Shown here in pieces: positions 24,454 through 63,598 of a stretch of 64,000 nt of DNA. Source of the DNA: a bacterium (GTDB taxonomy: Bacteria > Zixibacteria > MSB-5A5 > GN15 > FEB-12); contig JBDRNJ010000064.1 of NCBI GenBank assembly GCA_043811375.1, positions 64,001 through 128,000 on the forward strand, read 5' to 3'. Under the pieces are notes generated by a model. The model did no database searches. It was not told the DNA's origin and worked only from the letters and a program-made list of their open reading frames with translations. The position numbers and the translations under genes are program-made. The first letter of the stretch is position 1. The number at the start of each line of letters is the position of its first letter.

Positions 24454-24478
24454 TATGAGACGAGTTCCGCAACTGGGT
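24454..24478 (+). repeat. att-like direct repeat, copy A
   Basis: GAGACGAGTTCCGCAACTGGGT (24457-24478) is identical to 63528-63549. Confidence 0.8.
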
Positions 24479-24700
24479 GATGGAGAACGCAGCGTGAAAA
24501 TACGGCCCCGGCCTTACTCTCAGAATACTGTTGTGAGCTTTGAATTATCAATGCGTATGCACTACGGGATAATAGGTGGATGTCGTTGTAAAGAAATCAA
24601 GTGCAAGCAGACAAGCAACCAGAACCAGAATACAGTACGGAAACCAAAAGACAGGTTGAGCTTAAGCTTCTCCCTGGATATCGATCGAGAGTAATAAATA

Positions 24701-29749: not shown

Positions 29750-31017
29750 CTTGACGCCTCCTGGGCATCGGACGCCAGTTCACGAAGTGCTGCCGTCTGC
29801 TGATGGTACTGTTTGAGAAGTTCAAGTCTTTCCAACTCGACATTCATTACGTCCAGTTGAGCTGAGAGGAAGCCGTTGAAATCAACCTGACCGACTTCGT
29901 AAGCGACCTGCGCAGCTTCGCCGGCTGCTTGTGCCTGAGGAAGGATTGTCAGTTCGTATTGCTCAACGCGTTCTCGCAAGGACTGTAAAACCAGCACGAT
30001 ATCTGCAACCTTTCGCTCGACACTGTTGATAATCGCGTGTTCGTCGGCCTGTGCCGCCAGATACGATTGCCTTGCGGCTGCCGTCTGATTTCTCTGACGT
30101 GTGAAAAACCAGACCGGCAGGTTCATGCCAATCTTGAATGACAGGAAATCCTCACCGGAAACGGCGTCCATGGGGATATCCTTCCGAATACGATAATCGA
30201 CTCCAACTGTCAGGTTGGGCCAGTATTCGGATTTTGCCAGGTCCACCTTCCGTTTCGCCACCGCGGAACCTATTGACGCCCTCGCGAAGATAGGGTTAGA
30301 CAATTCAGCGGGTATTTCAACATATTCCTGCGGAATCGGCGGGAGTACATGTGTTAATGAAGCGTCGATTGTCCCGGGATTGTCGGTAAGCCGGGCGAGC
30401 TGAACCAGTGCTGAGGAAGCTTTTTGCCGGGCCATTAGTATGCGGTTTTCGATTCTCGCTTTGGATGTTTCTGAACGAAGGACATCCTGCAATGAGCCGT
30501 CACCATTGGAATATCTGGTCTGAGCGACCTGGATGATATTCTCGACAAGCTGCATACTCTCGGTAAGAACAGTTTCGACCAAAGTCTGGTGAGAGTAGTC
30601 GTAATAGTAATGCACCACCTGTCGGATGATGTTGTTCCTTCGAGCGGCCAGGTCCGTAGCCTTGATATCAGAATCCAGCCGGGCGATATCGGCCTTGGCA
30701 GACAATTTCCCGGGCCATGGAACACTCTGAGACAAACCGAGCGACACACCGCTCATGGGGGTTTCGTCGAAACTCATCGATGTTCGCGGTAGATTGAGAA
30801 TTGCCGCCGAAAGTTTTGGGTCCGGCAGCCAACCGGCGAAATTGGCCCCGTATTCGGCCGCGCTGTGTCTGTATTCAGCAGCATGAATCGCCGGATGGCG
30901 CTCCAGCGCAACCATGATCAGAGAGTCAAGTGTATGATTATCGCTGATATCATCCGCCCAGCCTGTCGGCGCCAGTGCCAGGCAGACCACAAAACAGACT
31001 ATTGTATTCTTATCCAC
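29746..31017 (-). CDS. TolC-family outer membrane efflux protein
   Basis: Signal peptide; LPDPKL..SQSVPWPGK; duplicated OEP pattern; precedes cusBA. Confidence 0.9.
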   Translation of the reverse strand: MDKNTIVCFVVCLALAPTGWADDISDNHTLDSLIMVALERHPAIHAAEYRHSAAEYGANFAGWLPDPKLSAAILNLPRTSMSFDETPMSGVSLGLSQSVPWPGKLSAKADIARLDSDIKATDLAARRNNIIRQVVHYYYDYSHQTLVETVLTESMQLVENIIQVAQTRYSNGDGSLQDVLRSETSKARIENRILMARQKASSALVQLARLTDNPGTIDASLTHVLPPIPQEYVEIPAELSNPIFARASIGSAVAKRKVDLAKSEYWPNLTVGVDYRIRKDIPMDAVSGEDFLSFKIGMNLPVWFFTRQRNQTAAARQSYLAAQADEHAIINSVERKVADIVLVLQSLRERVEQYELTILPQAQAAGEAAQVAYEVGQVDFNGFLSAQLDVMNVELERLELLKQYHQQTAALRELASDAQEASR

Positions 31018-47754: not shown

Positions 47755-50700
47755 CTATTTGGTTTGCGCCGGTCTTGGTGCAAACCATTCATAGAGCGCC
47801 GGAATCAAAACCAGAGTGAGAAATGTAGATGACAACAGTCCAAACACAACTACCACCGCTAACGGTCTTTGAACTTCTGAACCCATACCATGTGAAAGAA
47901 GCAAGGGTACCAGTCCGAGAATTGTTGTCAGAGCGGTCATCAACACCGGCCGTAACCGTAACATGCATGCCTGCACGATCGCATCAACTGTCGACATTCC
48001 TTCATCACGTAACAGGTTTACATAGGACACCAGTACCAGACCGTTCTGCACCGCTATTCCGAAAAGGGCAATGAATCCAACCGAGGCCGGTACGGACAAA
48101 TATTCTCCTGTAAGATACAGACCAAGTACACCACCTATCAGTGCCAGTGGTACGTTTATGAATATCAAAGTGGCGCTTCGTACGGTACCGAAGGACATGT
48201 ACAAAAGAAGAAATATCATAAAAAGGGTTGCTGGAACGATAATGCTCAACCTTTTCATGGCTCGTTCCTGGTTTTCGAATTGACCTCCGTACTCCAGATA
48301 ATAACCTGCGGGCAGTTCGATGTTTTCCCGGACCAATTTTTTAATGTCACTAACAACACTACCCATATCGCGACCACGTACATTTCCGGAGATTATCCAG
48401 CGTCTTTGATTCTTCTCACGGTTAATCTGAATTGGTCCAATCAGGGTCTTGACTTTTGCCACCTGAGACATAGGGATAAGAACGCCCTCTGATGTGTGGA
48501 CAAGCATGTTCCTGATTGATTCCGGATCGTCACGATAGCGCTCATCGTAGCGAACATGAATCCCAAATCTCCTGGTATTCAAGAATATCTGCGATATGAC
48601 TTCGCCACCGATGGCAAGTTCAACCACTTCGAGAATATCGGTCACATCGACTCCATATCGCGAGCAAGCTTCACGATCAGCAATAATCTGTACCTGTGGT
48701 TGTCCGAAACTCTGTTCGGTGGAGAGATCAACCAGTCCTTCAACCGGTTGAATGACCTCTTTGACTTCTTCCGCTTTAGTTCGAAGGGTAGTAAGATCTT
48801 CGCCATAAAGCTTTATTGCCAACTGTGTCTTAACGCCGGAGAGAAGTTCGTCAAACATATTTTGAATCGGCTGAGAAAACACAAGTTGCACACCGGGATA
48901 GTCCGACAGTTTTTTGTTCAGAGCCTCAATAAGTTCTTCTTTGGAATTATATTCCTGCCATTCCTCCTGAGGTTTTAACATAATTTGAATATGTGAGGAA
49001 TTCACCGGGTGCGGATGACTACCGGCTTCGGGTCGACCGATCTTGGCCACGGTCTGTTCAACCGGGCCAAATCCCATTACGATTCTTTCCAGCTTCATGA
49101 TGGTTTCGGTGGCTTTAACAAGGGAAATGGAAGGAGCCATCGTGACGTTAACTTGAATCGCACCTTCTTCCAATGTCGGAATAAACTCAGTACCGAGATG
49201 CGGTACCAGGAAAATCGTAAGGACGAAGGCGGTCAGGCTCAGGACAAGGACAGCTACTTTAAATCGTAGCACCAGTCTCAGAAAAGGCCTGTAGATGTTT
49301 TTGAGCCCTCGAATCAGAAAGAACTCTTTTCTTTGCTTTTGTTTCAAAAACAACGAAGACAGCGCAGGAGAAAAGATCAGGGCTGCTACCAGGGATCCAA
49401 GAAGCGCGAATGTTATGGTAAAGGCCATGGGCGAAAACATTTTGCCTTCGATCCCCTCAAGAGTAAACAGAGGCAGAAAAACAATGATAATAATGGAAAC
49501 AGAAAAGATAACCGGTCGGGCCACCTCTTTGCAGGCGGCGACAATGATCTCACGCTTGTCTCTGTTCTTGTATTTTTCGTCCCCGAGGAGTCGATAGGTA
49601 TTTTCTACTATCACGACAGAAGCGTCGCCAAGCATTCCGATAGCGATCGCAATCCCTCCGAGCGACATAAGGTTGGCCGACATATCGGCAATGCTCATGA
49701 AAATAGCGGCAATCAGTGCGCAGACTGGAAGAGCCAGCGCAACGATGAAAGCGCTTCGCAAATTTCCCAGGAACACAGCGAGGATAAATATCACCAGCAG
49801 TGCGCCCTGCAATAAAGCATCCCTCATGGTATTGACCGCATTATTTACCAGGGCACTCTGGTTGTAGTAAGGCACGAGATGTACGCCTTGCGGCAGTGAT
49901 TCTTGAACCTCCGGAGTCCGTTGATTCAAGCCCGCTATGACTTCAGAAGTGTTGGTCCCGAACAGTTTCATGACGATTCCGGCAACTACTTCTTCTTTAC
50001 CATTGAGGGTTACTACACCACGACGTACTTCTCGACCAAAATCGACCTCCGCCACATCTCCGAGACGAATAGGCGTGCCGTCTACAACCTTGAGCTGGAT
50101 GTTTCTAAGATCGTCTCTTCCTTCTATCAGCCCGATGCCTCTGACAAGGTACTCCTCGGAGCCGAGGACGAGAAATTGTCCTCCGGCATTGCGATTGTTA
50201 TTTGATATGGCTACGACGATATCCTCCAAACCGAGTTTATACTTGTTCAGAGCATACGGATTGATCTTAATCTGATACTGAAGAACATGCCCACCCATCG
50301 ACAGTATCTTGGTCACACCCGGGACAGTCTGCAGCTGATACTTTATGATCCAGTCATTAACCTCTCTCAGGTACGTGTCTAAAGGCTTACCCTCGGTATC
50401 CACGGTGCTGTCGGCCGTGAGGTAGTACATGAACACTTCGCCAAGCCCCGTCGAAATGGGACCCAGGCCCGGCTGTTCATGCAATTCCGGTAATTCTCCG
50501 GATACGCTGGCTAATCGTTCAGCGACAATCTGCCGGGCGAAATAGATGTCAACGTCATCCTCGAAATAGACATAGATAACAGCCATACCAAAGGCGGAGG
50601 TCGATTTGATCAATCTTACACCGGGCAGACCGTTCATCGCCGATTCGATGGGAAACGTTATGAGACGTTCTACTTCTTCCGGTGCCATTCCGTGGGCTTC

Positions 50701-50850
50701 GGCGAATACCGGTACCATCACTGGAGAAATATCGGGAAAAGCATCTGTCGGCAGGTTGCTGTACTTAAACAATCCAAGAGCAATGACACTAATCAGCAGA
50801 ATTACTACAATGAGACGATTTCTTAGTACTAGTTCAAAATGTCGTTTCAT
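47755..50850 (-). CDS. czcA: CzcA-family heavy-metal RND efflux permease
   Basis: DAFPDIS; GPISTGLGE; NLMSLGG; FSPMA; GFIALFGIAVQNG; RLRPVLMTA. Confidence 0.92.
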   Translation of the reverse strand: MKRHFELVLRNRLIVVILLISVIALGLFKYSNLPTDAFPDISPVMVPVFAEAHGMAPEEVERLITFPIESAMNGLPGVRLIKSTSAFGMAVIYVYFEDDVDIYFARQIVAERLASVSGELPELHEQPGLGPISTGLGEVFMYYLTADSTVDTEGKPLDTYLREVNDWIIKYQLQTVPGVTKILSMGGHVLQYQIKINPYALNKYKLGLEDIVVAISNNNRNAGGQFLVLGSEEYLVRGIGLIEGRDDLRNIQLKVVDGTPIRLGDVAEVDFGREVRRGVVTLNGKEEVVAGIVMKLFGTNTSEVIAGLNQRTPEVQESLPQGVHLVPYYNQSALVNNAVNTMRDALLQGALLVIFILAVFLGNLRSAFIVALALPVCALIAAIFMSIADMSANLMSLGGIAIAIGMLGDASVVIVENTYRLLGDEKYKNRDKREIIVAACKEVARPVIFSVSIIIIVFLPLFTLEGIEGKMFSPMAFTITFALLGSLVAALIFSPALSSLFLKQKQRKEFFLIRGLKNIYRPFLRLVLRFKVAVLVLSLTAFVLTIFLVPHLGTEFIPTLEEGAIQVNVTMAPSISLVKATETIMKLERIVMGFGPVEQTVAKIGRPEAGSHPHPVNSSHIQIMLKPQEEWQEYNSKEELIEALNKKLSDYPGVQLVFSQPIQNMFDELLSGVKTQLAIKLYGEDLTTLRTKAEEVKEVIQPVEGLVDLSTEQSFGQPQVQIIADREACSRYGVDVTDILEVVELAIGGEVISQIFLNTRRFGIHVRYDERYRDDPESIRNMLVHTSEGVLIPMSQVAKVKTLIGPIQINREKNQRRWIISGNVRGRDMGSVVSDIKKLVRENIELPAGYYLEYGGQFENQERAMKRLSIIVPATLFMIFLLLYMSFGTVRSATLIFINVPLALIGGVLGLYLTGEYLSVPASVGFIALFGIAVQNGLVLVSYVNLLRDEGMSTVDAIVQACMLRLRPVLMTALTTILGLVPLLLSHGMGSEVQRPLAVVVVFGLLSSTFLTLVLIPALYEWFAPRPAQTK

Positions 50851-50865
50851 TTATACTGCCTCCCC

Positions 50866-51858
50866 TTAATGACCATGCCCGGCGTGGGCGTCCAGATTGC
50901 TCGTTACAATCTTGGCCTTCAGCTCGAAGGCGCCTTTTGGTACGTATTCGATGCCTTCACTCAGACCACTCACAATCTGGGTATACTTCGCATCGCTATC
51001 GCCTGTGACGACCTCGACGGGTCTGAATCTGTTAGGTCCATCTACGACAAATACCACGCTTGTATCGCTGAGATACTGAACAGCATCTTTCTCGACCACA
51101 AGATTCTCGTCTCGCCCTTCGGTCGTAATTGACGCTTGTACAAAGGTGCCGGGTCGCCAGGCGTTATCCGGGTTAGGCAGCGTAATCCTGGCGGTTGCGC
51201 TTCTTGTCCGGAAATCAATTATTGGAGTAATGTAATCTATGGTCCCTGTCGTCGAGTTCATCGAACCAACCGCCTTGATCTGTACCATCTGTCCCTTTTT
51301 AACTCGATCGAAATCCTTCGGATAGACCGCCAGGTTGACCCAAACCGAGGACAGGTCGGCAATTACGTAGATACTGTTTTCTTCAGAGACGAACTCGCCC
51401 GGAGTAATATGCCGCTCAATCACCCAACCAGAGAAGGGAGCCGTAATTGTATATGAATTCATACTTTCATTGCTTTCGACAATTGCCATAACTTTGTCGG
51501 TTTCAACGTAATCACCGACTCTGTATGTGGCTTGCTGTGCAATACCGGCGAACCGAGGCGCAATGTGAGCTACTCTGTCATCGTTAAACCCTACTTCTCC
51601 CGGTAATTCAATAGTCCGGTCGATGCGTCCTTGCTTTACAATCGATATCGTAATGCCGGCAAGTTTCATGGCTTCCGGAGTCAACTCGACTATGAGCTCT
51701 TCATTGTGTCCTTCATGATCGTCGTCATCAGCAAGATCATCATGTGCTTCTCGGGCCTTTTGTTCGTTGACGTGGTCATGGTCATCTTGAGCCGACACAT
51801 CAGAAACGAACCAGGGCAACAGCAAGGCAAAAAGTAATATCACAAATCTATCAGACAT
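50866..51858 (-). CDS. czcB: CzcB-family periplasmic adaptor
   Basis: His/Asp-rich N-terminus; IADLSSVWV; WRPGTFV; C-terminal HAGHGH. Confidence 0.9.
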   Translation of the reverse strand: MSDRFVILLFALLLPWFVSDVSAQDDHDHVNEQKAREAHDDLADDDDHEGHNEELIVELTPEAMKLAGITISIVKQGRIDRTIELPGEVGFNDDRVAHIAPRFAGIAQQATYRVGDYVETDKVMAIVESNESMNSYTITAPFSGWVIERHITPGEFVSEENSIYVIADLSSVWVNLAVYPKDFDRVKKGQMVQIKAVGSMNSTTGTIDYITPIIDFRTRSATARITLPNPDNAWRPGTFVQASITTEGRDENLVVEKDAVQYLSDTSVVFVVDGPNRFRPVEVVTGDSDAKYTQIVSGLSEGIEYVPKGAFELKAKIVTSNLDAHAGHGH

Positions 51859-51861
51859 CTC

Positions 51862-53175
51862 TTAATTCTCCTTATCTACACGCAATGCAACGCCGGTGAG
51901 GTATTCCAGGGCGATAATCTGTTCTTGAATTGCCAGAAACATGTCATTGTGCTCAAAGCTAAGATCATTAAGAGATCGTTCTGCTTCAAACAGTTGTGTA
52001 TATGGTACCCGGCCTGCTTCATATGCACTTTGGAGTGTACGATAAGCATATTCCGCGGTGGGCAGGAGCAAAGAATCCAAAGTAGCGTGTTTATTTATTA
52101 GTTGATTCAAGCGGATAGCTTGAGACTGAATGTTCGCTCTATTTTCGTTTTTTATCTGTTCGATTTTGTACTCAATAGAACGCAGCCTGGCATCTATGGT
52201 TTTTTGTAAACCCTGATTCCGGTTGAATAATGGGATCGGCAATGAAACGCCAAAGAGCAATGACTTAGAGTTATTCACTTCAAATCTCTTGAATCCTCCG
52301 CTAAAAGTAATGGTTGGCTTAGCTTCTGCCGCCACCAGTCTTTTCTCAGCTTGAAGAAGTTCCGATTCACTATGCATTTGCACAATGCCACGAGTGGAAT
52401 CAATTCGACTTGATAACGAAGCTACGTGATCCTGTAATTTGGTGAAGTCAGGTTTAGAGTTGATTGATATTTTCAAGCCCGAAGGTTTACCATTCCACAG
52501 AGAAACCAAAGTAGCTTCGACAGCCAATACATCTTGCTTTGCCTGGTCCAGTGTAAGCTGTGACCGTTGTTTTTCTAGCTGGGCGAGAATAAGTTCCGAC
52601 TGCAGAGCAGCTCCCTTATCAAGTCTGTAAGTTATGTCCTCGACGATTTCTTTAGCCAATACAACTGACGCTTCAGACAGAATTACATTTTGCTGTGCAT
52701 GGGCAAGAGCATAGAATCGCTGCTTTGTTTCAAGATAGAGATCAAATGCCGCCAGCTTTATCTGCAGATTGGTTGCATCGATTTCGGCTTTAGCGACATT
52801 TCTTCTTGCGCCCCGCTGTTTGAAAAACTCAAATTCCTGAGCGAGTGAGACAGAAAATTCAGACTCTTTGAAACCGGGAGCATCCCAGCCGATTTCCCCA
52901 AATTCAGCATCCAATTCCGGATTCGACCAGAGACCAGCCTGTTTAAGGTTGCTGTTTGCGGCCTTTAACAGAAAGCTGAATGACCGAAAAGCCGGGTTTT
53001 CAACTGCCACCAGTTTGAGGACATCGTCAAATGATAATATCGAATCAACAGATACTATTTTTATGTCGGCAGTATCAAATTGGGCTTGCCAGGAGTCCCA
53101 TCCTCGGGCATTGGGCGATAAAATCAAGATAATCACCAGGATAGAAGCTACTGGTAAATAAATGTATCCTTTCAT
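51862..53175 (-). CDS. czcC: CzcC/TolC-family outer membrane protein
   Basis: QAGLWSNPEL; SLPIPLFNRNQG; AYEAG; position in the operon. Confidence 0.88.
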   Translation of the reverse strand: MKGYIYLPVASILVIILILSPNARGWDSWQAQFDTADIKIVSVDSILSFDDVLKLVAVENPAFRSFSFLLKAANSNLKQAGLWSNPELDAEFGEIGWDAPGFKESEFSVSLAQEFEFFKQRGARRNVAKAEIDATNLQIKLAAFDLYLETKQRFYALAHAQQNVILSEASVVLAKEIVEDITYRLDKGAALQSELILAQLEKQRSQLTLDQAKQDVLAVEATLVSLWNGKPSGLKISINSKPDFTKLQDHVASLSSRIDSTRGIVQMHSESELLQAEKRLVAAEAKPTITFSGGFKRFEVNNSKSLLFGVSLPIPLFNRNQGLQKTIDARLRSIEYKIEQIKNENRANIQSQAIRLNQLINKHATLDSLLLPTAEYAYRTLQSAYEAGRVPYTQLFEAERSLNDLSFEHNDMFLAIQEQIIALEYLTGVALRVDKEN

Positions 53176-53270
53176 CTACAATTCTCCGTACAGGTTAATA
53201 CAATTCTCCAAATAGACCAGTAGACAGGCTGAATCGGAGAGCTATTCAGTTGTTATTTGAGATGAAAGAA

Positions 53271-53702
53271 TCAACAGCGAAGAATGATGGTTGCCATAGA
53301 TGCAGATGAGGGGCTCTGGCAAAAAGTCAAAAGAAACTTATCTTCCTGCGAATTACCGTTACCGGTGGATGAAGCAATTATGTCAGTGTAAAAAGCGGGT
53401 GCTGTAAACGGTATGACTGATTGAATAATATTGTTCTTTTGAAGACGTCTTGACCACAGCGGTCCGTCCAGTGCAAAATCTGAACAATTGTTACAATCAC
53501 TATGCTCATCGTGTACATCGTCAGATACATCGACATCACAAACTAATTCGGCATCGCTACAACATGGCAGACAATTAGCCTCAAACTTGATATGTCCGTC
53601 ATCACCGACACATAACTCCTGACTTGTTCCGCTGAAGACGAGTCCGACGAAAAAGATCAAGCACATTTGCCAAATTATTATTTTATGAGTCTGTAATTCC
53701 AT
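53271..53702 (-). CDS. Cys/His/Asp-rich exported protein upstream of czcCBA
   Basis: Hydrophobic N-terminus; LCVGDDGH..E..C.PCC...HDEHSDCNNC; C-terminal TIILRC; TTGACT-N17-TATTTT upstream. Confidence 0.7.
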   Translation of the reverse strand: MELQTHKIIIWQMCLIFFVGLVFSGTSQELCVGDDGHIKFEANCLPCCSDAELVCDVDVSDDVHDEHSDCNNCSDFALDGPLWSRRLQKNNIIQSVIPFTAPAFYTDIIASSTGNGNSQEDKFLLTFCQSPSSASMATIILRC

Positions 53703-53970
53703 AAGTTGTTAAAATAATGCCGATATTTATGATAGTCAATCTAATCATTGTATACAGTCATAAGTCTGATTTGTTCCCAAGACGAAGCGGGCTCGTTCGT
53801 ATCGGAGCATCTCATAGGGTGTCATTAATTTGATGGCAAAACCAATGCCTACATTCGGTATCTTGGTTATTTTTATTGAAGGTGGTGCAATTTAATGGGT
53901 TACGACTGTGTCTTCATGGACCAGGGCGTGGGCTACCAGGTAGTAGCCGGCTGCGCCCGCTCAGTCTCGA

Positions 53971-54342
53971 TTTGCCGACAAGGAGATAGGTACGGTTCAA
54001 AAGCAGCTCAGCATTCGAGAGAGGAAACTCGACTAGCTCTATGATGCCATTGAGGAGGAACATGTTTCTTCCGCCGATTTGACCCCACGGCTAAGGAAGC
54101 TGATGGCCGAGGTTGATCAGCCTCGCCAGCGAGTGCGAGAGCCTGAATTCCAAAGAGACAGATGTCATCCTTCGACGACAGTGAGCCCGTTGAGACTGAG
54201 ATCGTTTATCAATAGAACAGATCCGGATTACCCGCAAGTAACTGTGGAATATGCATTTCCGGTAATTCCCGGGAGGGGAGGGGTAGCTGAGGAAGCTCTT
54301 GCTAATGACAAATTAGGCGAGTTATACGAGACGAGTTTCTAA
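53971..54342 (+). pseudogene. Remnant of a large serine recombinase C-terminal region
   Basis: Frame reads KQLSIRERKLD*LYDAIEE..ADLTPRLRKL..LRSFINR...QVTVEYAFPV with an in-frame TAG at 54034-54036; resembles the coiled-coil and C-terminal strands of these enzymes (recognised by eye). Confidence 0.55.
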
Positions 54343-54487
54343 TAAGTCTTTCCTCGACTGAAGTCATTGCGCAGCATATGATTCACTCCAGTCAGCCAGC
54401 ATCTGTTGTGGGAGTTTGGGTTGCTAAAAACCGGTGTAACGGATTCTGTCTACTCTAATAGAGAATCAGACTGTCGAACCAATGGCA
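54324..54487 (+). repeat. 164-bp direct repeat, copy 1
   Basis: Matches 57077-57240 with 9 mismatches by manual alignment. Confidence 0.95.
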
Positions 54488-54752
54488 TTAGTCAAACTGT
54501 GGCTTAGATTTCAATATTACCTGTTCGGATTGTTTGACGACGTACATTTTTCTTTAAATCGACAAACTGTCTCAGATTAGTAGATCATAAAGGAATCACC
54601 CATTCGCGGCAGTGAAGAGTCTGCGTGAGTTTTGGTTGCAGCGAGCTCCTATCGTCGTAATGAGTTCATCAGAAAAATACCGCCGGTAGGAAAGATTTCG
54701 ATGAACAAAATCAGAATCTGCGGATTGTCTGGTTAAACAAGGAGAACTACCG

Positions 54753-56051
54753 ATGAGCCAAATGAGAATCTTTATCCCGATCACTGCCTTGCTTATGATC
54801 AGTTTCGGCTATTCGATGAATCTGTCGGCCGACGAGGTCGTCCGACCCACAGAAATCAAGAGCAAGCGGCAGGTCATCTATGACCAGCCAACTTACGCGA
54901 AAATGGCCCGGTTGTGGAAAGACTATTATGATGAGTATCCATCCGAAAATGCTTACGCCAACTGGATGTATGCCACCCGGTACGCCGAGCAGGAAGATTA
55001 TGCCCGGTTACTGGATGTGGGCATGGAGAAGTATCCTGCCAACCCCATGTTGCTGTACCTGAAATCCATGCTTCGTCACGGGGGCCAGGACGACGCGCAG
55101 GAGCGGAAGTATCTTGAAGAAGCAGTACGTCTCGATCCGGACTACGCTGACCCGTGGTTCTCCCTTGTGATTGTCTACATGAATGCGCGCGACGAGGAGC
55201 GGCTGAACCTTGCTCTGCGCCATCTGCTCGAGAGCGGGTCCATCACCGATGAGGTGATGGATTACAATTACAATACACTGATCGGTCTTGAAGAGAACGC
55301 CATTCTCATAACCAACGGTGACAATGATACCTACCCGGCGTGGATTCTGACACGAATACTCCGGATCCGTCCCGATGTAGATATCGTTAACCGCAGCCTG
55401 TTGAATTCGGAATGGTACCCGCTGTATGTCATTGAGCAGGGGCTGCCCCGGTTCATCAGTAGGAGCCAACTGGAGAAGCTGCGCGACTCTGCGGCGAAAA
55501 GGCTGAAAAAGGGAGATACGGGTGTGCCTCCGGGAGGGTTGGTTGGCGATACGCTCATTAAGTTGCTTGTGAATTCGGCTGAGCGGGCTCGGCTGCCGGT
55601 TTATTTTGCAACTACACTTTATGTCACCGAAGATCTGAAAGAGCTGGCCGAGAACGGCAGGCAACTCGGCCTGGCGACACTCGTCACACCATCCGATATG
55701 CCATACTACGACCAACTGCGGAACGTTTTCGCTACGTGGACGACCAAATTTCGGACCGGCGGATTGGATAGCTGGAGCCTGCATCATGCACCCAAAGCTG
55801 ATGCAGGCCGATCATTGGTGCGTAATTATGTTTCGGGTATCGCGGTTAACCTGCCGGTGCTGAAGAAAAACGCACCGGAACTTCGCCTTTCGCTGTTTAA
55901 CTGGTATATTGCACATATCGAGAAACACCTCAGTGAGGAAATGAGACACAAGGTCGCTCAGACATGGGCATGTTACGGATCGGACCTAATGCACGTTGAT
56001 GAATGGTGCAAGAAACAGGGATTGAAGTGCCCGGAGCCACAGGAACAGTGA
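54753..56051 (+). CDS. Exported TPR-like protein with a DUF2723/TMEM260-like GDNDTYP segment
   Basis: Signal peptide; helical repeats; NAILITNGDNDTYPAW...RPDV.IVN.SLLN..WY. Confidence 0.7.
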   Translation: MSQMRIFIPITALLMISFGYSMNLSADEVVRPTEIKSKRQVIYDQPTYAKMARLWKDYYDEYPSENAYANWMYATRYAEQEDYARLLDVGMEKYPANPMLLYLKSMLRHGGQDDAQERKYLEEAVRLDPDYADPWFSLVIVYMNARDEERLNLALRHLLESGSITDEVMDYNYNTLIGLEENAILITNGDNDTYPAWILTRILRIRPDVDIVNRSLLNSEWYPLYVIEQGLPRFISRSQLEKLRDSAAKRLKKGDTGVPPGGLVGDTLIKLLVNSAERARLPVYFATTLYVTEDLKELAENGRQLGLATLVTPSDMPYYDQLRNVFATWTTKFRTGGLDSWSLHHAPKADAGRSLVRNYVSGIAVNLPVLKKNAPELRLSLFNWYIAHIEKHLSEEMRHKVAQTWACYGSDLMHVDEWCKKQGLKCPEPQEQ

Positions 56052-56584
56052 ATCCGGAGTGGGACTGTTTTTTTCGCTGCCGACAGGGAGACGAAGAAGC
56101 GTGGCGCGTGTTGACGGAAAAATATCGGTCACGCCTTTTGACACTGGCGCTGCTTATTACCGGATCAGGCGCTGCGGCGGAAGACGTCGTTCAAGAGACA
56201 TTCGTCCGGGCGCTAGGCGGCGCCATTAAGAATACCTCAGGCACGGTACACGGTTTCCTGGGAACTATTGCCTTTCGCCTGGCCGTGAAAGAAACGCAGC
56301 GTATGCGGCGATATGTTCGCCTGGATGCGCTTGAACGATTCGATCACGGTGAGAATCCAATGGAACAACTCTTGAAGGATGAGCGTCAGCGTTTCATCGC
56401 GGGGGCAATTGGCAGCCTTAATGTAGAGCACCGCGACGTTCTCCTGTTGCGTTGCTATGGTGGGCACAGTTATGAGGAGATCGCCAAACTGTTGAAAGTT
56501 CCGATAGGAACAGTTAAGTCACGGATTTTCTATGCCGTCAAGTCCTGTCGCGACATATTACGGCGGAAGGGAATGTTAGAGTAA
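56048..56584 (+). CDS. ECF sigma-70 factor
   Basis: GDEEAW; AEDVVQETF; SYEEIAKLL.VPIGTVKSRI. Confidence 0.92.
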   Translation: MNPEWDCFFRCRQGDEEAWRVLTEKYRSRLLTLALLITGSGAAAEDVVQETFVRALGGAIKNTSGTVHGFLGTIAFRLAVKETQRMRRYVRLDALERFDHGENPMEQLLKDERQRFIAGAIGSLNVEHRDVLLLRCYGGHSYEEIAKLLKVPIGTVKSRIFYAVKSCRDILRRKGMLE

Positions 56585-57006
56585 TGCACATCAGTGAAGA
56601 TAAACTTATCGAGTACGCACTCGAAATCGTCGATGTTGATAACGAACGTGCAGAGATCGAAGAGCACCTTGAGACCTGTCAATTGTGTCGCTCAAGATTG
56701 AGAGAGGTGCGGAGCGATATTGATACCATCAGCAGCATTCGGCTAGACCGACCGGTTGCAGCGACACCGTCGAGCACTACGTGGCACGACGCAGTTTACC
56801 CATTACTTCGGGTGGCTGCTCTCATCGTAATCGGTCTGGTGGCGGGATTCGGTACATCACTATGGTTTGAGGATAAGCCGGCACGCGTGGTTTCGCAATA
56901 TGTGACGCTGTCATCACCGGCAGACTCCGTTAGCCGGTATGCTGCATCAGATGCAACTGATATATCATCGGACTATTACAGGCATATGTTACAGGATATT
57001 AAGTAA
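56584..57006 (+). CDS. Zinc-binding (zf-HC2) membrane anti-sigma factor
   Basis: HLETCQLC (HxxxCxxC); one TM helix; coupled to the sigma gene. Confidence 0.88.
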   Translation: MHISEDKLIEYALEIVDVDNERAEIEEHLETCQLCRSRLREVRSDIDTISSIRLDRPVAATPSSTTWHDAVYPLLRVAALIVIGLVAGFGTSLWFEDKPARVVSQYVTLSSPADSVSRYAASDATDISSDYYRHMLQDIK

Positions 57007-57076
57007 ATCCTTCCATATCAACTGTATGTCGTCAAACAAAGTGAACATGACGGTGTTGCAAGTTATTATGCGGACC

Positions 57077-57240
57077 ATACAAGACGAGTTTCTATAAGGA
57101 CTCGCCTCGACTGAAGTCATTGCGCAGCATATGATTCACTCCAGTCAGCCAGTATCTGTTGTGGGAGTTTGGGCTGCTAAAAACCGGTGTAACGGATTCT
57201 GTCTACTCTAATAGAGAATCAGACTGTCGAACCAATGGCA
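57077..57240 (+). repeat. 164-bp direct repeat, copy 2
   Basis: Near-identical to 54324-54487. Confidence 0.95.
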
Positions 57241-57258
57241 GCTGACAGAAAGGTGACT

Positions 57259-57366
57259 TTATTTATTCTTCTTTTCTTTTTTCGATTGTCGTTTTTCCTT
57301 TGGACTGCGCTGGGCCTTTTTCTGTTGTTCCCTTTTGCCCTTATCTTTCTTTCCTTTATCACCCAT
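57259..57366 (-). CDS. 35-aa Lys-rich peptide
   Basis: GGAG RBS then MGDKGKKDKGKREQQKKAQRSPKEKRQSKKEKKNK. Confidence 0.65.
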   Translation of the reverse strand: MGDKGKKDKGKREQQKKAQRSPKEKRQSKKEKKNK

Positions 57367-57531
57367 ATTTGTTTCTCCGTGTTTGAAATTGACTTGAGCC
57401 GGCCATGGTGGGTTTCTTTTTGTTCTTATATTATGCCAAAGCCGTACTCCAATAACAATATATACAGGTGGTGTTTGCGAATGGCAACAAAAAAAACTGG
57501 CCATCCCCTGGGTCGAAAATCGATGCGGGCC

Positions 57532-57671
57532 TTACGAGACGAGTTTCTAAAAAGCATTACCTCGATTGAAGTCATTGTGCGGCAGACGATATACTCCAGT
57601 CAGCCGGCATCTGTTGTGGGAGTTGGGGTTGCTTAAAATCGGTGTGGCGGATTCTGTCAACTCTAATAGAG
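57532..57671 (+). repeat. Diverged, right-truncated repeat, copy 3
   Basis: TACGAGACGAGTTTCTA...GAAGTCATTG...ACTCCAGTCAGCC..CATCTGTTGTGGGAGTT...CGGATTCTGTC.ACTCTAATAGAG. Confidence 0.9.
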
Positions 57672-57677
57672 CATGGA

Positions 57678-59072
57678 TTACTTGTAATGCTGCCGAATGA
57701 ACTCCTCGGTCTCCGGCAAACCTCCCTGGAGGATGAGGTAACCGTTATGCGGCTCACGCTCCGTGATTTCGTGATTGACGGGGTGTCGCATCATGCGCAT
57801 GACTTCGTCATGGTCATCGGTGTGACCGAGCACCCAGCATAATTTCATTAAAGCCGTCTCCGGGAGCATGTTGTCAAGGGGTATTACGCCGATGTCGAGC
57901 AGGTCACGTCCGGTGTCATAAACATACATCTGAGTAAATCCCCAGAGAGTTTGCACGGTCATAACAACGTGAACTCCATTGTCAATGGCCTTTTTCAGGG
58001 CTGGATAGAGCGGCTTATTGACATGGCCAAGACCGGTGCCCGCGATAACGATTCCCCGGTAGCCTTTCTCCACGTATGCGTCAACCAGGTTCGGGTTCAT
58101 GCCCGGATAGTAATAGAGGATGGAGACGTGATCATCGTATACGGGGTCGATGACAACCTTGCGTTGCCGGTCACGCGACAGGTAGTCGTCCGTGAGATAT
58201 TTGAACTTATCGTTGTGGACAATACAGAGCGGGATATCTCCTAACGTCCGGAACGTGCTGCGATATGAACTGTGCATCTTACGACACCTTGTTCCACGGT
58301 GGAGCAGCCCATATTGATCCGACGTAGGGCCGAACATGCAGATCTGTACTTCCGCAATGTCGCCGTGGGCAGCCGCGTTCACGGCGTGAATCAGGTTGAT
58401 TGCGGCGTCGCTACTCGGTCTATCAGAGCTCCGCTGACTGCCGACTATGACAATCGGGACGGGGCTATTCTGAACCATGAACGTCAGTATGGCGGCGCTA
58501 TGGCCCATTGTATCGGTGCCGTGGCCGATAACGATGCCGTCAGCACCGGCTTCGATTTCCTCGCCGATCGATTTGGCCAGAGTGATATATTGCTGTGCCG
58601 CCATGTTCTCGGAAAATACTCCGAACAGCTTTATTGTTTTCAGGTTGCAGATATTGGCCAGCTCCGGAACCGCGCCGTACAGTTCGCCGGGCGAGAAGGC
58701 CGGGATCACGGCACCAGTCCGGTAATCCAGACGGGATGCGATTGTGCCCCCGGTTCCGAGGAGCGTTACATTTGGAAAATCAGGATTCCGTGGAAATTCC
58801 TTTTCCGGGATTTTATAAATCGCCTCCTTGCGTCCGAGCTCCTCTATCTTACGAATGCGGTTCACGTTTACGCCGACGTTATAACCGTTTTTCATTTTGA
58901 TCACGATGTATTTGTCGTTGTGAGATCCGCTACGCGGCAATATGACTCCATTGAAGATACTACCAGCGTCATTGGTTACGCTCACGTCGCTCCAAACTCT
59001 TACACCCCATTCACTCAATTTTCTTCGGGCGAGGCCGGTGTAACCTTTTAACTCGTCTTTTTCCTGTCCCAT
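57678..59072 (-). CDS. gatD: Glu-tRNA(Gln) amidotransferase subunit D
   Basis: N-terminal GVILPR...KMKNGYNVG domain; TGGTIASRLDYRTGAV; HGTDT; GSQRSSDRPSSD; RKMHSS. Confidence 0.93.
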   Translation of the reverse strand: MGQEKDELKGYTGLARRKLSEWGVRVWSDVSVTNDAGSIFNGVILPRSGSHNDKYIVIKMKNGYNVGVNVNRIRKIEELGRKEAIYKIPEKEFPRNPDFPNVTLLGTGGTIASRLDYRTGAVIPAFSPGELYGAVPELANICNLKTIKLFGVFSENMAAQQYITLAKSIGEEIEAGADGIVIGHGTDTMGHSAAILTFMVQNSPVPIVIVGSQRSSDRPSSDAAINLIHAVNAAAHGDIAEVQICMFGPTSDQYGLLHRGTRCRKMHSSYRSTFRTLGDIPLCIVHNDKFKYLTDDYLSRDRQRKVVIDPVYDDHVSILYYYPGMNPNLVDAYVEKGYRGIVIAGTGLGHVNKPLYPALKKAIDNGVHVVMTVQTLWGFTQMYVYDTGRDLLDIGVIPLDNMLPETALMKLCWVLGHTDDHDEVMRMMRHPVNHEITEREPHNGYLILQGGLPETEEFIRQHYK

Positions 59073-59073
59073 A

Positions 59074-61071
59074 TCATTTACATTCAGTGATTCCCTGCGG
59101 CTTACTTTCAGCATATTGCCGGAGTTTTTGTTCGATAACTTCATTTACTTCCCTGCCCGGTACAATGCCCCTGAGATCAGGCATGACACATCCCATAAGG
59201 AACCTGATACGTCCTTCGCAATGTTCAGAGCGCCAGTGATGTTTTTCATCGGCCAGTATTAAATCGATCTTTCCAGCCCAGTCCGGAACATTCTCTGCCG
59301 GAGTGACTTCATCTATCAACTTGTTAAGCGGTTTCTGTGGATCGTCGGCCATGCGCATTACCAGCCGCTTCCAGGCATCGAGGATTACAGGCCTGATTGC
59401 CACAAGGCGGAATAACTCACAACATCTTTCCTTCGAGATATTGCCCGGAACAGATGATTTGCGATTTAATCCTTTCAGTTTTTCGCCGAAAAAGAAACAT
59501 GCTTGCCTGAGATCAGCCCCGGCTTCCTCGACAACGAGGTCCACCAGTGCGGCCCCGCCTCTCCGGATGAGGTAATGAATAGTGCTGAGGGGAACGCCGA
59601 CAGCACTGTATTCCGCTTCCCTAACCCACGGTGGTGGCGGCAGGTCGGCGTTGAGTCTCTCAACACGGTCACGTGTAACTTCGATTGGCGGGCTGTCCGT
59701 ATCCGGATACATGCGGTCGGGTCCTGGAAGGATACGCTCGAAATCGGTGCTCCCGTCCTCGAAAGGCTGGCGCGTTTCATTTGGCACCCCGTCAATAGCA
59801 TCCTCGTAACGAATGCGGATCTCCTCCACCGCTGTTATTGTGTCCTGCAGAGGTCCCCATACCACCACGAGCGAATCATCGGTGTTAAGGCCAATTTCTT
59901 TTACGAACGATTCCAACTCGGTATCCGAATCCTCGTATTCAGGCCACTGCTCGCAGTGGACCAGTATGGGCGGTTCATCGAGGGCGGCGATTACCCTTAT
60001 CCGTCCCGCAAGCTCATCGGCGAACGTACGGTTCGGCTGGGTCGGCCATGCGAGTGTACCGGCGAGCCCGGTCAGTCTCACTGCTCGAACGCAGAAATTT
60101 CCCTCGCCGCATGCCAGCTCAGGTAGTTCCATCTTTGCGACCCTCTTTTCCCAGTGTTCCTTCCTGAGAAACGGCAGCTTAGATTTGGAACACAAAGAGG
60201 TGACGTCTGCATGAGTGATTTTGATATCTTCAGGCGCCTTGAATCCGCGCCTGTTGAGGTCATCCCTTAACTCGAGGAGGTTCTTCTGGCGCACGGCCTC
60301 GCCGTGGACAAGCTTCTTAGCCCAGCCGGCACGCGGGACACCCTTGATTTCCACCCGCCGACCACCGCGAATCGATACGTTAACGTCCTGCCTGCTCGCA
60401 CCGATGCCTGTCCTGACGTGCCCGGTGCTCCTGCAGACTCGTCCGATAAGAAGGATCGCCTCCACGACTTCTTCGGGTGTCCGCAGGTCCGGACCCGTAA
60501 CCGTCTCGATCAGCGGCATGCCGAGGCGGTCGGTTCGCCAGACGATGAGATGCCCCTGGTCGGAAACCTCACGGCAGCTGTCTTCCTCCATGCTGACCTG
60601 CAGAATCGAAAGTTCCCTGCCACGGAAGGGAAGCCTGCCGTTTACCCCCACGATGGTAGTCCTTTGGAATCCGGTCGGAATCGAGCCGTCAAGATACTGC
60701 TTGCGGGCGATATGGACCTCATCGACTATGTCGCATCCAAGCATGAGGCACTGTTCAATAGCAATATCCAGAGCCTTCTGGTTCACGAGAAACGGCGGCG
60801 TGTCATCCATCTCATAGGTGCAAACGTTGCTCTCATGTAGAAGGTACATAATATTCTTTTTGGTTTTGAACTCCATGAGAGCCGTTCCGTCGTATTCACC
60901 GAACTCCGACAGCGTCGGCCTCATGTGACGTATTAATATGCCGTCATGTTCCCTGGTGTAAACGCCCGCGGGACACCGACAGAACATCTTGTGCACCGTG
61001 TCCAACTGTTGATGGACTTCCAGCCCGGTAATCAGGCCGATTTCAGTATAGTCGAGTTCTTCACTCACCAT
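59074..61071 (-). CDS. gatE: Glu-tRNA(Gln) amidotransferase subunit E
   Basis: LDY.EIGL..GLEVHQQL; MRPTLSE.GE.D; RKQYLDGSIPTGFQRT; EEDSCR; DRLGMPLIE; RQDVNVSI; GVP.ETR; LPGPDRMYPDTD. Confidence 0.93.
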   Translation of the reverse strand: MVSEELDYTEIGLITGLEVHQQLDTVHKMFCRCPAGVYTREHDGILIRHMRPTLSEFGEYDGTALMEFKTKKNIMYLLHESNVCTYEMDDTPPFLVNQKALDIAIEQCLMLGCDIVDEVHIARKQYLDGSIPTGFQRTTIVGVNGRLPFRGRELSILQVSMEEDSCREVSDQGHLIVWRTDRLGMPLIETVTGPDLRTPEEVVEAILLIGRVCRSTGHVRTGIGASRQDVNVSIRGGRRVEIKGVPRAGWAKKLVHGEAVRQKNLLELRDDLNRRGFKAPEDIKITHADVTSLCSKSKLPFLRKEHWEKRVAKMELPELACGEGNFCVRAVRLTGLAGTLAWPTQPNRTFADELAGRIRVIAALDEPPILVHCEQWPEYEDSDTELESFVKEIGLNTDDSLVVVWGPLQDTITAVEEIRIRYEDAIDGVPNETRQPFEDGSTDFERILPGPDRMYPDTDSPPIEVTRDRVERLNADLPPPPWVREAEYSAVGVPLSTIHYLIRRGGAALVDLVVEEAGADLRQACFFFGEKLKGLNRKSSVPGNISKERCCELFRLVAIRPVILDAWKRLVMRMADDPQKPLNKLIDEVTPAENVPDWAGKIDLILADEKHHWRSEHCEGRIRFLMGCVMPDLRGIVPGREVNEVIEQKLRQYAESKPQGITECK

Positions 61072-61157
61072 CTTACCAGCAATACTTTAACCGTCTCGAA
61101 ACCTGCGGCCAGGCCATGCGGTTACGCTCGTGACGTCTTAAGGTAGCACTAAGTTCC

Positions 61158-62672
61158 CTAACCGCAGTGAATACTGTCCGTTATAAGTTTTGAGAGTTGT
61201 TTTCTGTTTTTTCGCAGGGACCGTGCAAGGTTTTTATCATTGTATGAACGGAGCCTGGAAATGAGTATGTCTATCAGCGCAGGGGGGAACACTCCGAGCT
61301 TCTCATACACTTTACGGTTGTCTTCTAGTTTGTCCGCACTCTCGCTGCAGGAGCAGGGCAGAACAGCGGTTTTGCTTGTCGTTTTTCTGTTCTGAAGGTT
61401 CTCGATGCGTTGCATCTGCGCGAGTTCAATTGCCCCTTTGTCTTTAAGACCCGACCTCAATGCAACGAGGATGCCCGCGATAGTTAAGTGCACGTTGGCT
61501 GAGCCGTCCGGCAGGCGGAATTCGATAGTCTTTCGGTCGATATGTGCGTTACGCCGGTGCCCTGCTTTCTGGTTTACCACCTCCGCCATCGGCCGTCTGT
61601 GCCGCCACCCGAGGGGTACGCGGATAAGTGAACTGCGGTTACCCTCTCCCCATGTAGCCGTATCGGGAGCTTCCATTCCGGAGAGCAAACGGAGGTAGCT
61701 CGTTGGCACGGTGTTGCCGAACGCCGCCAGGCTTGGAGTATGCTTTAGAAGCCCTCCGATAGAATGGAGGCCTTTTGCGGAAACCTCTCCCGCCTTTGTG
61801 AACAGGATGTTGTCCTTGTCTTTCAGAAGTTGGAAGTGAAAGTGCAATCCGCTTCCGGCAAGCGTGGTGTCAATTTTCGGGGCAAAGGTGGCGACGAGGT
61901 TATACCTGGCGGCAATGTTGCGAACCACCCATTTTCCAATTACGAGTTGATCGGCCGCTTCAACAGGATCCTTAAGCGTGAATTCGATCTCGTGTTGCTC
62001 GCAGAATTTCCCGCCCTCGGACCCGCCTCCAACTTCGGCATGGGCATATTTTACACCGATACCGAGCGAAGTAAGCTCATCGATTATTTCGTCCCTGACG
62101 TTCTGGAATCGAACGAAGGGCGTGGACTCCTGGTAAAGGGTTTTGCCCGGTTGACCGGTCCCTTCGCCGGGTCCGATAAGGTAAAACTCGAGCTCCCCGA
62201 GGAATCGGGTCGATAAGTTCGTTTCGTGGGCCAGCGCGTTTTTCGCCTCCATGACGAGGCGATACGGGCAAAGTTCGAACTGACGCTCATCCGCGCCGAA
62301 GCATGCGGTCATAAGCACGAGAGTGGGTATACTTGCAAACGGATTTACAAAGGCCGTGGAATATCGGGGCACAATGTAGATATCGCTCCTCGTCGAGTTG
62401 AGTTGTGGAAAGTGGTTCGAGCCATCCACCCGCTCGCCCATGTCGAGTATTTCTTCGAGGCGCGCTTTAGAAGTGATCGGAAAGGTAAGTGTTTTCATCC
62501 GCCCGTCACCGGACAGGGGTGATAATGTCAGGAGCCTTAGATTTTTCGCATAAGCATACCGCACAATGTCCTGTCTCGTAAAATCGCATGGAGGCTTTCC
62601 AAGAAACTCAGCGATTGGGTTTGACAGGTTTTTCTTCTTTTTTTTGCTACTGTTATTTCTTGCTTTTTTCAT
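61158..62672 (-). CDS. glnA: Glutamine synthetase (type I family)
   Basis: GERVDGS; ELEFY; HAEVG; QHEIEF; TFAPK..AGSGLHFH; SYLRL..G.EAP; NRSSLIRVP; IEFRLPD. Confidence 0.9.
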   Translation of the reverse strand: MKKARNNSSKKKKKNLSNPIAEFLGKPPCDFTRQDIVRYAYAKNLRLLTLSPLSGDGRMKTLTFPITSKARLEEILDMGERVDGSNHFPQLNSTRSDIYIVPRYSTAFVNPFASIPTLVLMTACFGADERQFELCPYRLVMEAKNALAHETNLSTRFLGELEFYLIGPGEGTGQPGKTLYQESTPFVRFQNVRDEIIDELTSLGIGVKYAHAEVGGGSEGGKFCEQHEIEFTLKDPVEAADQLVIGKWVVRNIAARYNLVATFAPKIDTTLAGSGLHFHFQLLKDKDNILFTKAGEVSAKGLHSIGGLLKHTPSLAAFGNTVPTSYLRLLSGMEAPDTATWGEGNRSSLIRVPLGWRHRRPMAEVVNQKAGHRRNAHIDRKTIEFRLPDGSANVHLTIAGILVALRSGLKDKGAIELAQMQRIENLQNRKTTSKTAVLPCSCSESADKLEDNRKVYEKLGVFPPALIDILISRLRSYNDKNLARSLRKNRKQLSKLITDSIHCG

Positions 62673-63524
62673 GTTTACCAGTCCAACATCAGACACTAAC
62701 TGCTTCAAGTTTCAGACCTTATTTGGAATATGAAGGATTGTGAAAGTCCTGAATTCTATCCGCAGAGCTCCCCCTGCGGATAATTCCATTTTTTGGAATA
62801 CAAACTACTTAGTAACGAAGCAGGATTTTTCGCCACAAATAGCTTAAAACCCTCAAGGGATGTTCACTGAAATTTACAGGCTGGTTGTGAGGTTTTTGCT
62901 GACGAATATTACGCCTGCATTTTCCAAAATCACGAAAGTCCGTTAGCATCAGGATGCTCTTTTCTTGCCTCTACCCGTGTATCATTGCATAAAATCCATG
63001 CTGCAATATTGATTACTAATATATATCACGCAGTAGGGTTGTCAACAGATTTCGTTTATTTTTGACCTTCTCCCAAAAAACTGGACCAGTCCAGGTTTCA
63101 GAATTCAACTGAATGCGGTTTTGGAGGGAGGACGGCACAATGCAGAAGAAACGGTTAGCAGACCAGCGGATCACACCCACCGTGTCCCATGATTCCGGAT
63201 GACAAGAGCTGCACAACTGCGATAGCCGGCGCTTCAGCCTGGTTCTTACTCAAGGCCACTGCAAGCCAATCCTCGCTATTGAATCACATTCCGACGCCGT
63301 GAGATTGTGGTTATAAGTGAGAAGTGTGGTACAGTTCTGATGTGGGATTGGGCGGTCCTTGTGAGATGTCATTACAGGGTAGAGCGGACTCAGCTCTCGT
63401 CTGACTCTGACAGGATCTGTCAGCCGTAGAATCACGAGAGACTTTTAACTGCAGGATTTCGATATCGAAATTATGGTAAACCTGCAAGTTATTGAATTAT
63501 TGCCGGTTACGGAATGGCGGGGGG

Positions 63525-63549
63525 TACGAGACGAGTTCCGCAACTGGGT
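63525..63549 (+). repeat. att-like direct repeat, copy B
   Basis: TACGAGACGAGTTCCGCAACTGGGT; 24 of 25 nt match 24454-24478; lies in a frame reading EWRGVRDEFRNWVI. Confidence 0.8.
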
Positions 63550-63598
63550 CATTCACAATTCGACTGCATGATTCATTAGCTGATGCCCCGGATCGGTG

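Follow-up and report, generated by a model that had tools for sequence, protein, structure and literature searches.

The amidotransferase genes gatE and gatD lie on the minus strand of a 64,000-nucleotide stretch of DNA from a bacterium of the phylum Zixibacteria (contig JBDRNJ010000064.1 of assembly GCA_043811375.1), and this whole stretch is called the window below. They are preceded by a divergent gene of the glutamine synthetase (GS) family, the second GS gene of the genome. This glnA-like open reading frame (ORF) runs from an ATG at 62672 to 61158 (504 aa) and is followed after 86 nt by gatE (61071-59074, 665 aa), whose stop codon ends at 59074. As gatD starts with an ATG at 59072 and extends to 57678 (464 aa), the two genes are separated by a single nucleotide. 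These three are the only long ORFs within a block of 5389 bp (57669-63057, minus strand) that is shared with the independent metagenome contig L363, in which the same genes occur with 93.9% nucleotide identity across exactly this span and with more synonymous than non-synonymous differences in each of them. The other genes of L363 match contigs C14 and C64 of the window's genome, which is 95% complete with 0.6% contamination and provides a bacterial context. In addition, contigs of the public run X1 span both the gatD-gatE and the gatE-glnA junctions, and contig pieces end at 57669 (runs X1 and X4) and at 63057 (runs X3 and X4). The possibility of a chimeric contig, which the original prediction had raised, is ruled out by the synteny with L363 and by the run X1 contigs bridging the gene junctions.

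The block also includes a sigma-70-like promoter candidate on the minus strand (63045-63018; TTGACA, 16 nt, TATATT), located 12 nt inside the block end and retained in L363. It is a consensus match at 11 of 12 positions and was the best of 11 sites found (shuffle mean 6.1). In the long leader between this candidate and the start of the GS-like gene, a stable hairpin (62757-62782) was seen that has no Rfam match, and no RNA family came close to its gathering score in the leader or in the repeats described below.

The assignment of both subunits is based on NCBIfam profiles. GatD scored 499.5 bits on TIGR02153 (cut-off 324) and NF003217 (cut-off 310) and is an asparaginase-fold glutaminase, in which a GatD_N domain is combined with a type I asparaginase fold. 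GatE scored 390.6 on TIGR00134 (cut-off 319.55) and 465.1 on NF003107 (cut-off 456), and thus passed its own curated cut-off while remaining under those for GatB. H20, E162 and E189 of GatE align with H15, E157 and E184 of the Methanothermobacter thermautotrophicus enzyme, which are named as Mg-binding residues in PMC2330236. Together with R227, they are conserved in 100-101 of 102 bacterial sequences and in 77-78 of the 78 sequences on the archaeal side of the GatE tree (ten proteins of this side were looked up, and names were found for four). In GatD, T110, T186, D187 and K265, with numbers read off the alignment, align with the Thr and the Thr-Lys-Asp residues of the M. thermautotrophicus protein, which we take to be the nucleophile and the catalytic triad. 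Full-length gatE and gatD, 1 nt apart and with intact catalytic motifs behind a glnA-like gene, are therefore confirmed by ORFs, profiles and alignments.

The domain architecture of GatE is complete as well. Its insertion domain is retained, as seen from a continuous alignment of residues 3-652 to chain C of PDB 1ZQ1, with Pfam GAD itself giving no match, and the helical and tail domains are present at full length. The YqeY-like tail can be aligned, and its strict GXXAXGX motif occurs in none of the 102 bacterial sequences, but also in just 9 of the 78 archaeal-side sequences. The catalytic cradle is more conserved in the bacterial clade (62%) than on the archaeal side (50%) and contains many clade-specific invariant residues, whereas conservation is poor (21%) in the tail that binds tRNA. 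Where M. thermautotrophicus has Gln240, 74 of the 78 archaeal-side sequences carry Gln, and the 102 bacterial ones most often have Pro, Ala or Ser (Pro246 in the window). We take Gln240 to be a reader of the tRNA's initial base pair, a role for which our literature search found no support.

The host inventory sets the frame for any function of these proteins. The host encodes glutaminyl-tRNA synthetase (GlnRS; 730.6 bits on TIGR00440, cut-off 425.8), a bacterial glutamyl-tRNA synthetase (GluRS), a bacterial aspartyl-tRNA synthetase (AspRS), an asparaginyl-tRNA synthetase (AsnRS) and, elsewhere in the genome, a canonical glnA. Its AsnB exceeds the TIGR01536 cut-off, and a truncated AsnRS paralogue (L007:1510-2505, on contig C6) lacks an anticodon-binding domain, and it scores below the cut-offs for asparagine synthetase A. 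Neither gatB, nor a gatA-type amidase of GatCAB, nor AsnA was found in the host genome. Both tRNA-Gln genes and the tRNA-Asn gene carry a U1-A72 first pair, while the tRNA-Glu genes have G1. According to this inventory of synthetases, GatCAB and tRNA-Gln first pairs, which had been suggested along with the original prediction, GatDE is dispensable for the supply of Gln-tRNA(Gln), because the host has GlnRS. The identity element of archaeal GatDE is the A1-U72 pair of tRNA-Gln, according to PMC2330236 and PMC9499178, and this recognition rule cannot hold here, as both host tRNA-Gln species have U1-A72.

GatDE turned out to be common in the phylum. Among 285 genomes (incomplete ones included, kin non-independent, GatE counted at E <= 1e-50), GatE was found in 184 (166 over the cut-off), GatD in 182 and both in 174; GatB was detected in 142, GlnRS in 226 and AsnRS in 254; of 198 high-quality genomes, 191 have AsnRS. 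Carriers of GatD or GatE (n=192) had GlnRS in 173 and GatB in 96 cases, and the genomes with neither protein (n=93) in 53 and 46 cases, respectively. In the order, GatE was found in 128 of 160 genomes, counting that of the window, and the gene is kept in 82 of 107 genomes of the family; the close relatives G042 and G045 are without GatDE. Thirty genomes of other phyla with the window's GatE type, which represent 30 of the 80 related loci, had GlnRS in at least 25 and GatB in 14 cases. The NCBI and JGI records already name such bacterial proteins GatE. The supposed rarity of an archaeal-type enzyme in bacteria was thus contradicted by the counts for GatE and GatD in the phylum and by a large bacterial clade that is separate from archaeal GatE.

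The trees and identities also clarified the origin of the window's copy. The bacterial GatE clade is fully supported and distinct from the side that holds four clusters with archaeal names, and the window's protein stands deep inside it, beside a sequence from Fermentibacteria; a direct archaeal donor was therefore rejected. GatE of the window shares only 41-46% identity with the full-length copies of its own order, as compared to 61-70% with copies from Acidobacteriota, Myxococcota, Planctomycetota, Gammaproteobacteria and Fermentibacteria, and GatD likewise shares 72-82% with copies of other phyla versus 62-68% with copies of its own phylum. Forcing the window's sequence into the family's resident GatE clade was rejected by the approximately unbiased (AU) test (p=0.0008; the choice of the group followed inspection of the first tree), whereas monophyly of the phylum's resident GatE was neither recovered nor rejected (p=0.10). 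Judging from these comparisons, the GatDE of the window is a bacterium-to-bacterium import, xenologous to the copies of the host's family, into a lineage in which most members have a gatE-gatD of their own. The phylogeny proposed with the original prediction thus showed this copy to be horizontally acquired. Vertical inheritance across the phylum, which had been named as the finding that would speak against mobility, holds for the family of genes as a whole, though not for this discordant copy.

The original prediction had further connected GatDE with the GS gene as one mobile module, and this connection proved to be local. In Pfam, the GS-like protein passes for both Gln-synt_C and Gln-synt_N, but it stays below every NCBIfam GlnA cut-off (195.9 versus 429.15 on TIGR00653). 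Its nearest relatives share 54% identity, followed by GS-family proteins of about 500 aa from Bacteroidales, Bathyarchaeota and Planctomycetes with 40-45% over about 97% of the length. Metal- and substrate-binding motifs are present; the window's protein is on a long branch and is not the housekeeping GlnA. None of the 107 other genomes of the family was found to have this GS type. Among 80 related loci, only two have a GS gene directly next to gatD (L119, same strand, and L071, convergent), and in L049 one lies at a distance of about 6 kb. No recurrent accessory gene was seen near gatE-gatD in these 80 loci, and eight genomes of the family have gatE-gatD in eight different neighborhoods. The conserved unit is gatE-gatD, and in some families even these two genes are unlinked. 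The GS gene is thus an optional passenger, which could top up the amide donor. Of the proposed horizontally mobile module, the acquisition of the copy and its island-like region were borne out, and the conserved association of GS with GatDE was not.

On balance, the GatDE of the window is probably a Glu-tRNA(Gln) amidotransferase of a bacterial clade that serves as a back-up or repair route beside GlnRS. GatD would release ammonia from glutamine (or asparagine), and GatE would phosphorylate and amidate the glutamate on tRNA-Gln, and its recognition would have shifted to suit the U1-A72 first pair of bacteria. The presence of GlnRS suggests a parallel or repair role, in which Glu-tRNA(Gln) from a leaky GluRS would be converted to Gln-tRNA(Gln). 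As the window's GatDE shares only about 44% identity with the copies of the family and the host keeps the GluRS and the tRNAs of its family, a generic substrate is likely.

The gene neighborhoods point to glutamine as well. We analyzed 94 gatE loci, namely the 80 related ones and 14 hand-picked ones, four of which had been chosen because a synthetase link was already visible. GlnRS or GluRS genes were found near gatE in six of them. A locus of the Planctomycetales that belongs to the window's own clade (L118:610-5609) carries gatE, gatD and glnS in this order on a single strand, and a gap of about 20 nt separates gatD from glnS; in G280 and G284, glnS adjoins gatE; and in G248, G253 and G256, gltX followed by tRNA-Gln(CUG) is located 1.6-3 kb downstream of gatE. 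An operon gatE-gatD-gltX in G248 and G253 was rejected, as gatD lies elsewhere in these genomes. On contig C1 of G253 (L154 and L197), two near-identical gltX copies are found, each followed by tRNA-Gln(CUG). Directly upstream of gatE, tRNA-Gln(CUG) is present in three related loci.

The first base pairs of tRNA-Gln in these bacteria are mostly of the bacterial type. Among 73 tRNA-Gln calls, in which a few genes were counted twice due to overlapping loci, 68 had U1-A72 and five had A1-U72. The latter are all tRNA-Gln(UUG) of GatDE carriers from one family (L289, L358, L359, L361 and L362, of genomes G010, G011, G014, G020 and G005), and G017, which is of the same genus, has U1-A72.

We also examined GluRS, the enzyme that would supply the substrate. 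All 32 GatDE carriers with a native GluRS have kept a segment of domain 4, which 19 of 32 non-carriers have lost (local difference 0.69 versus a mean of 0.04, standard deviation 0.12); seven of the 71 rows were left out of this comparison, being five foreign-type GluRS, one duplicate and one partial sequence. In the host GluRS (L003:1486-2940), this segment corresponds to the aromatic-rich residues ~340-352, which are conserved in the lineages of the phylum that have GatDE and GlnRS, are degenerate in several GatDE-less lineages and look like a partner-binding surface. As a GatE partner, the segment was nevertheless rejected, since the pattern comprises only three independent changes and is not separable from that of GlnRS. 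Five GlnRS-less genomes of two families (L230, L231, L232, L233 and L234, of G065, G276, G274, G071 and G273) share a GluRS of foreign type that stands on a long branch and apparently results from a replacement. All 71 sequences, those of GlnRS-less genomes included, have Arg at the position equivalent to R358 of Thermus thermophilus GluRS, and this invariant position carries no information as a specificity marker; PMC3927822 describes the R358 marker as phylum-specific.

Several observations weigh against a repair function beside GlnRS. As 31 of the 124 genomes with GlnRS and without GatB are also without GatDE, and as the GluRS of GatDE-less genomes has the same Arg at the R358 position, GatDE is dispensable and the leaky GluRS hypothetical. 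Moreover, 80 genomes hold GlnRS, GatB and GatDE together, a set that plain repair does not need. The domain-4 segment of GluRS reflects three changes on the tree with a sign test that is not significant, tracks GlnRS about as well, and is missing in the GluRS of those donor-side genomes that were inspected. One locus of the donor clade (L083) has a tRNA-Asn directly upstream of gatE. On the supporting side, there are two genomes in which GatDE appears to be the only route: G263 (94% complete) has GatD, GatE and GluRS, with neither GlnRS nor GatB found, and G293, the holder of the nearest GatE, has one tRNA-synt_1c match (GluRS), with no GatB found; both, however, are incomplete assemblies.

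The tRNA-Asn in L083 would fit a different substrate. GatDE could instead form asparagine on the tRNA as an Asp-tRNA(Asn) amidotransferase, for which the GatCAB of Thermus, Deinococcus and Bdellovibrio, where both direct synthetases are present as well, offers a precedent (PMC4206432). We consider this unlikely, even though it has attractive aspects: with AsnRS and GlnRS, neither charging route is needed, which would leave biosynthesis as the natural job, the host tRNA-Asn has U1-A72, and AsnA was not found in the host. Furthermore, in two pairs of related genomes (G163/G164 and G250/G248), the member without GatDE has the truncated AsnRS paralogue and the member with GatDE does not. However, the host and G032 hold this paralogue together with GatDE, and the comparison comprises ten genomes, of which three have a close orthologue, with a putative function of the paralogue. 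Host AsnB lies over its cut-off, and none of the 94 gatE loci contains AspRS, AsnRS, AsnB or the AsnRS-like paralogue. The retained insertion domain of GatE also argues against asparagine, as this domain of the archaeal enzyme is predicted to exclude non-discriminating AspRS, with no such binding detected, according to PMC2943598. A His in AspRS was found in 3 of 24 sequences from genomes with GatDE and without GatB, as compared to 9 of 16 from genomes with neither, and the host enzyme has Leu. This His is taken to mark non-discriminating AspRS; as a specificity marker, His/Leu is thus either uninformative or weakly against asparagine formation.

It appears quite improbable that GatDE has been repurposed to amidate a non-translational target, such as a small molecule, a peptide or a diverted glutamyl-tRNA, with GS feeding nitrogen. 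The many clade-specific invariant residues of the strongly conserved cradle, the poorly conserved tail that has no strict GXXAXGX motif in 102 of 102 sequences, and the retention of GatDE beside GlnRS and GatCAB would be in line with such a change. On the other hand, the strict tail motif is similarly rare on the archaeal side, the helical and tail domains are full length, linkage to gltX, glnS and tRNA-Gln recurs, and no biosynthetic accessory gene does so in the 80 loci or the eight family genomes. Slightly less probable still is that the island carries the block as neutral cargo, with a superfluous enzyme that was gained after loss of the resident copy and plays no selective role at present. 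The close relatives without GatDE, the recombination scars and metal-efflux cargo of the region, and the low codon usage scores of the glnA-like gene and gatE (7th and 17th percentile) are compatible with this. Against it, the three frames are intact in two relatives that are about 6% apart, with an excess of synonymous changes, and the genes were re-acquired by a lineage whose family mostly keeps them.

Compared with archaeal GatDE, as known from PDB 2D6F and 1ZQ1, which we take to be from M. thermautotrophicus and Pyrococcus abyssi, respectively, the window's enzyme agrees in the curated cut-offs, the domain order including insertion and tail, and the catalytic residues. It differs in its separate clade, in Pro246 at the Gln240 position, and in a bacterial host with GlnRS and AsnRS and with U1-A72 tRNA-Gln, so that neither the A1-U72 substrate nor the GlnRS-less host of the archaeal system is encountered here. 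Bacterial GatCAB shares the chemistry at the GatB/GatE cradle and works on U1-A72 tRNAs, but employs the amidase GatA in place of the asparaginase-fold GatD and has no counterpart of the GatE-specific insertion domain. In PMC2811023 and PMC4206432, GatCAB is described as retained beside GlnRS and AsnRS in some bacteria. Closest to the window are GatE-labelled proteins of Myxococcota, Acidobacteria, Eisenbacteria and Pseudomonadota, which have 63-70% identity and the same gatE-gatD order; in contrast to these, the window's genes are in an island-like region behind a GS gene, in a phylum whose resident copies belong to other sub-clades.

Reviews (PMC2811023, PMC2330236 and PMC9499178) describe GatDE as confined to archaea and link it with the A1-U72 pair that tRNA-Gln has there. 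The finding that two thirds of the genomes in one bacterial phylum carry GatDE is at odds with this view, and as these genomes mostly have GlnRS and U1-A72 tRNAs, either the recognition rule or the job of the enzyme has changed. Our literature search, which covered few subscription journals and no supplements, found no description of bacterial GatDE, while databases already label such proteins GatE; the bacterial import of the window's copy and the sharp block ends are new. A wider and rather doubtful proposal is that of an old bacterial GatDE lineage that was retuned to U1-A72 tRNA-Gln, paired with a dedicated GluRS surface, and exchanged between phyla as a small cassette, which would proofread by amidation beside GlnRS and would be the sole route to Gln-tRNA(Gln) in some bacteria, with G263 and G293 as candidates. 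If true, the view of GatDE as archaea-only would be overturned, which bears on its presence in the last universal ancestor, and bacterial translation would gain a quality-control step.

The setting of the block is island-like. The 14.9-kb locus of L363 has an upstream flank that differs from the window and matches contig C14 just before a gene that we take to be ffh-like. On the other side, the block continues in L363 into the same metal-efflux genes as in the window, without the 3.9 kb that hold repeat D1 and a pair of extracytoplasmic function (ECF) sigma and anti-sigma genes. This region (53740-57669) is absent from L363, and 55604-57004 is without cover in four runs. Due to the different flank and the missing D1/ECF stretch, the block either travels as cargo in a larger island or was relocated through a rearrangement. 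No recombinase is encoded within 57669-63057. Carriage by a phage or plasmid was rejected: viral contigs contained no relative, and one partial match to a haloarchaeal plasmid and one weak phage match (25%) were seen.

The repeats that had been described as flanking the block exist, but a role as its borders was not supported. Repeat D1 occurs at 54312-54487, 57065-57240 and 57520-57695, and the third copy, which abuts the gatD stop codon, is the edge of a later insertion behind gatD, the 3.9 kb absent from L363. The D1 copies have a 13-nt core in common with a pair of 28-nt att-like copies on the plus strand, at 63525-63552 and, 39 kb away, at 24454-24481. In the window, cores at 57533 and 63525 flank the block; yet the shared block stops at 63057, 470 bp before the 63525 copy, and the L363 locus has no core. 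Two contigs contain the core at eight positions in total, of which two are in the region upstream of a serine recombinase on contig C31, and the cores, including the 63525 copy, are probably recombinase scars. This large serine recombinase (C31:32554-34104) overlaps a tRNA-Gln(CUG) gene in antisense with its C-terminus, marking an island integrated at that tRNA.

Between D1 copies 1 and 2 (54753-57006, plus strand), a TPR-like protein, an ECF sigma factor and an anti-sigma factor are encoded, all of which are absent from L363. Two clusters that we take from their sequences to be heavy-metal efflux systems of the resistance-nodulation-division type (25135-31017 and 47755-53702, minus strand) are located in the scar-bounded region, the second being linked to gatD in L363 too. 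Between D1 copies 2 and 3, a Lys-rich ORF of 35 aa (57259-57366, minus strand) was noted, whose DNA is matched by many unrelated contigs with a summed depth of hundreds to thousands in four runs, indicating a widely shared small element.

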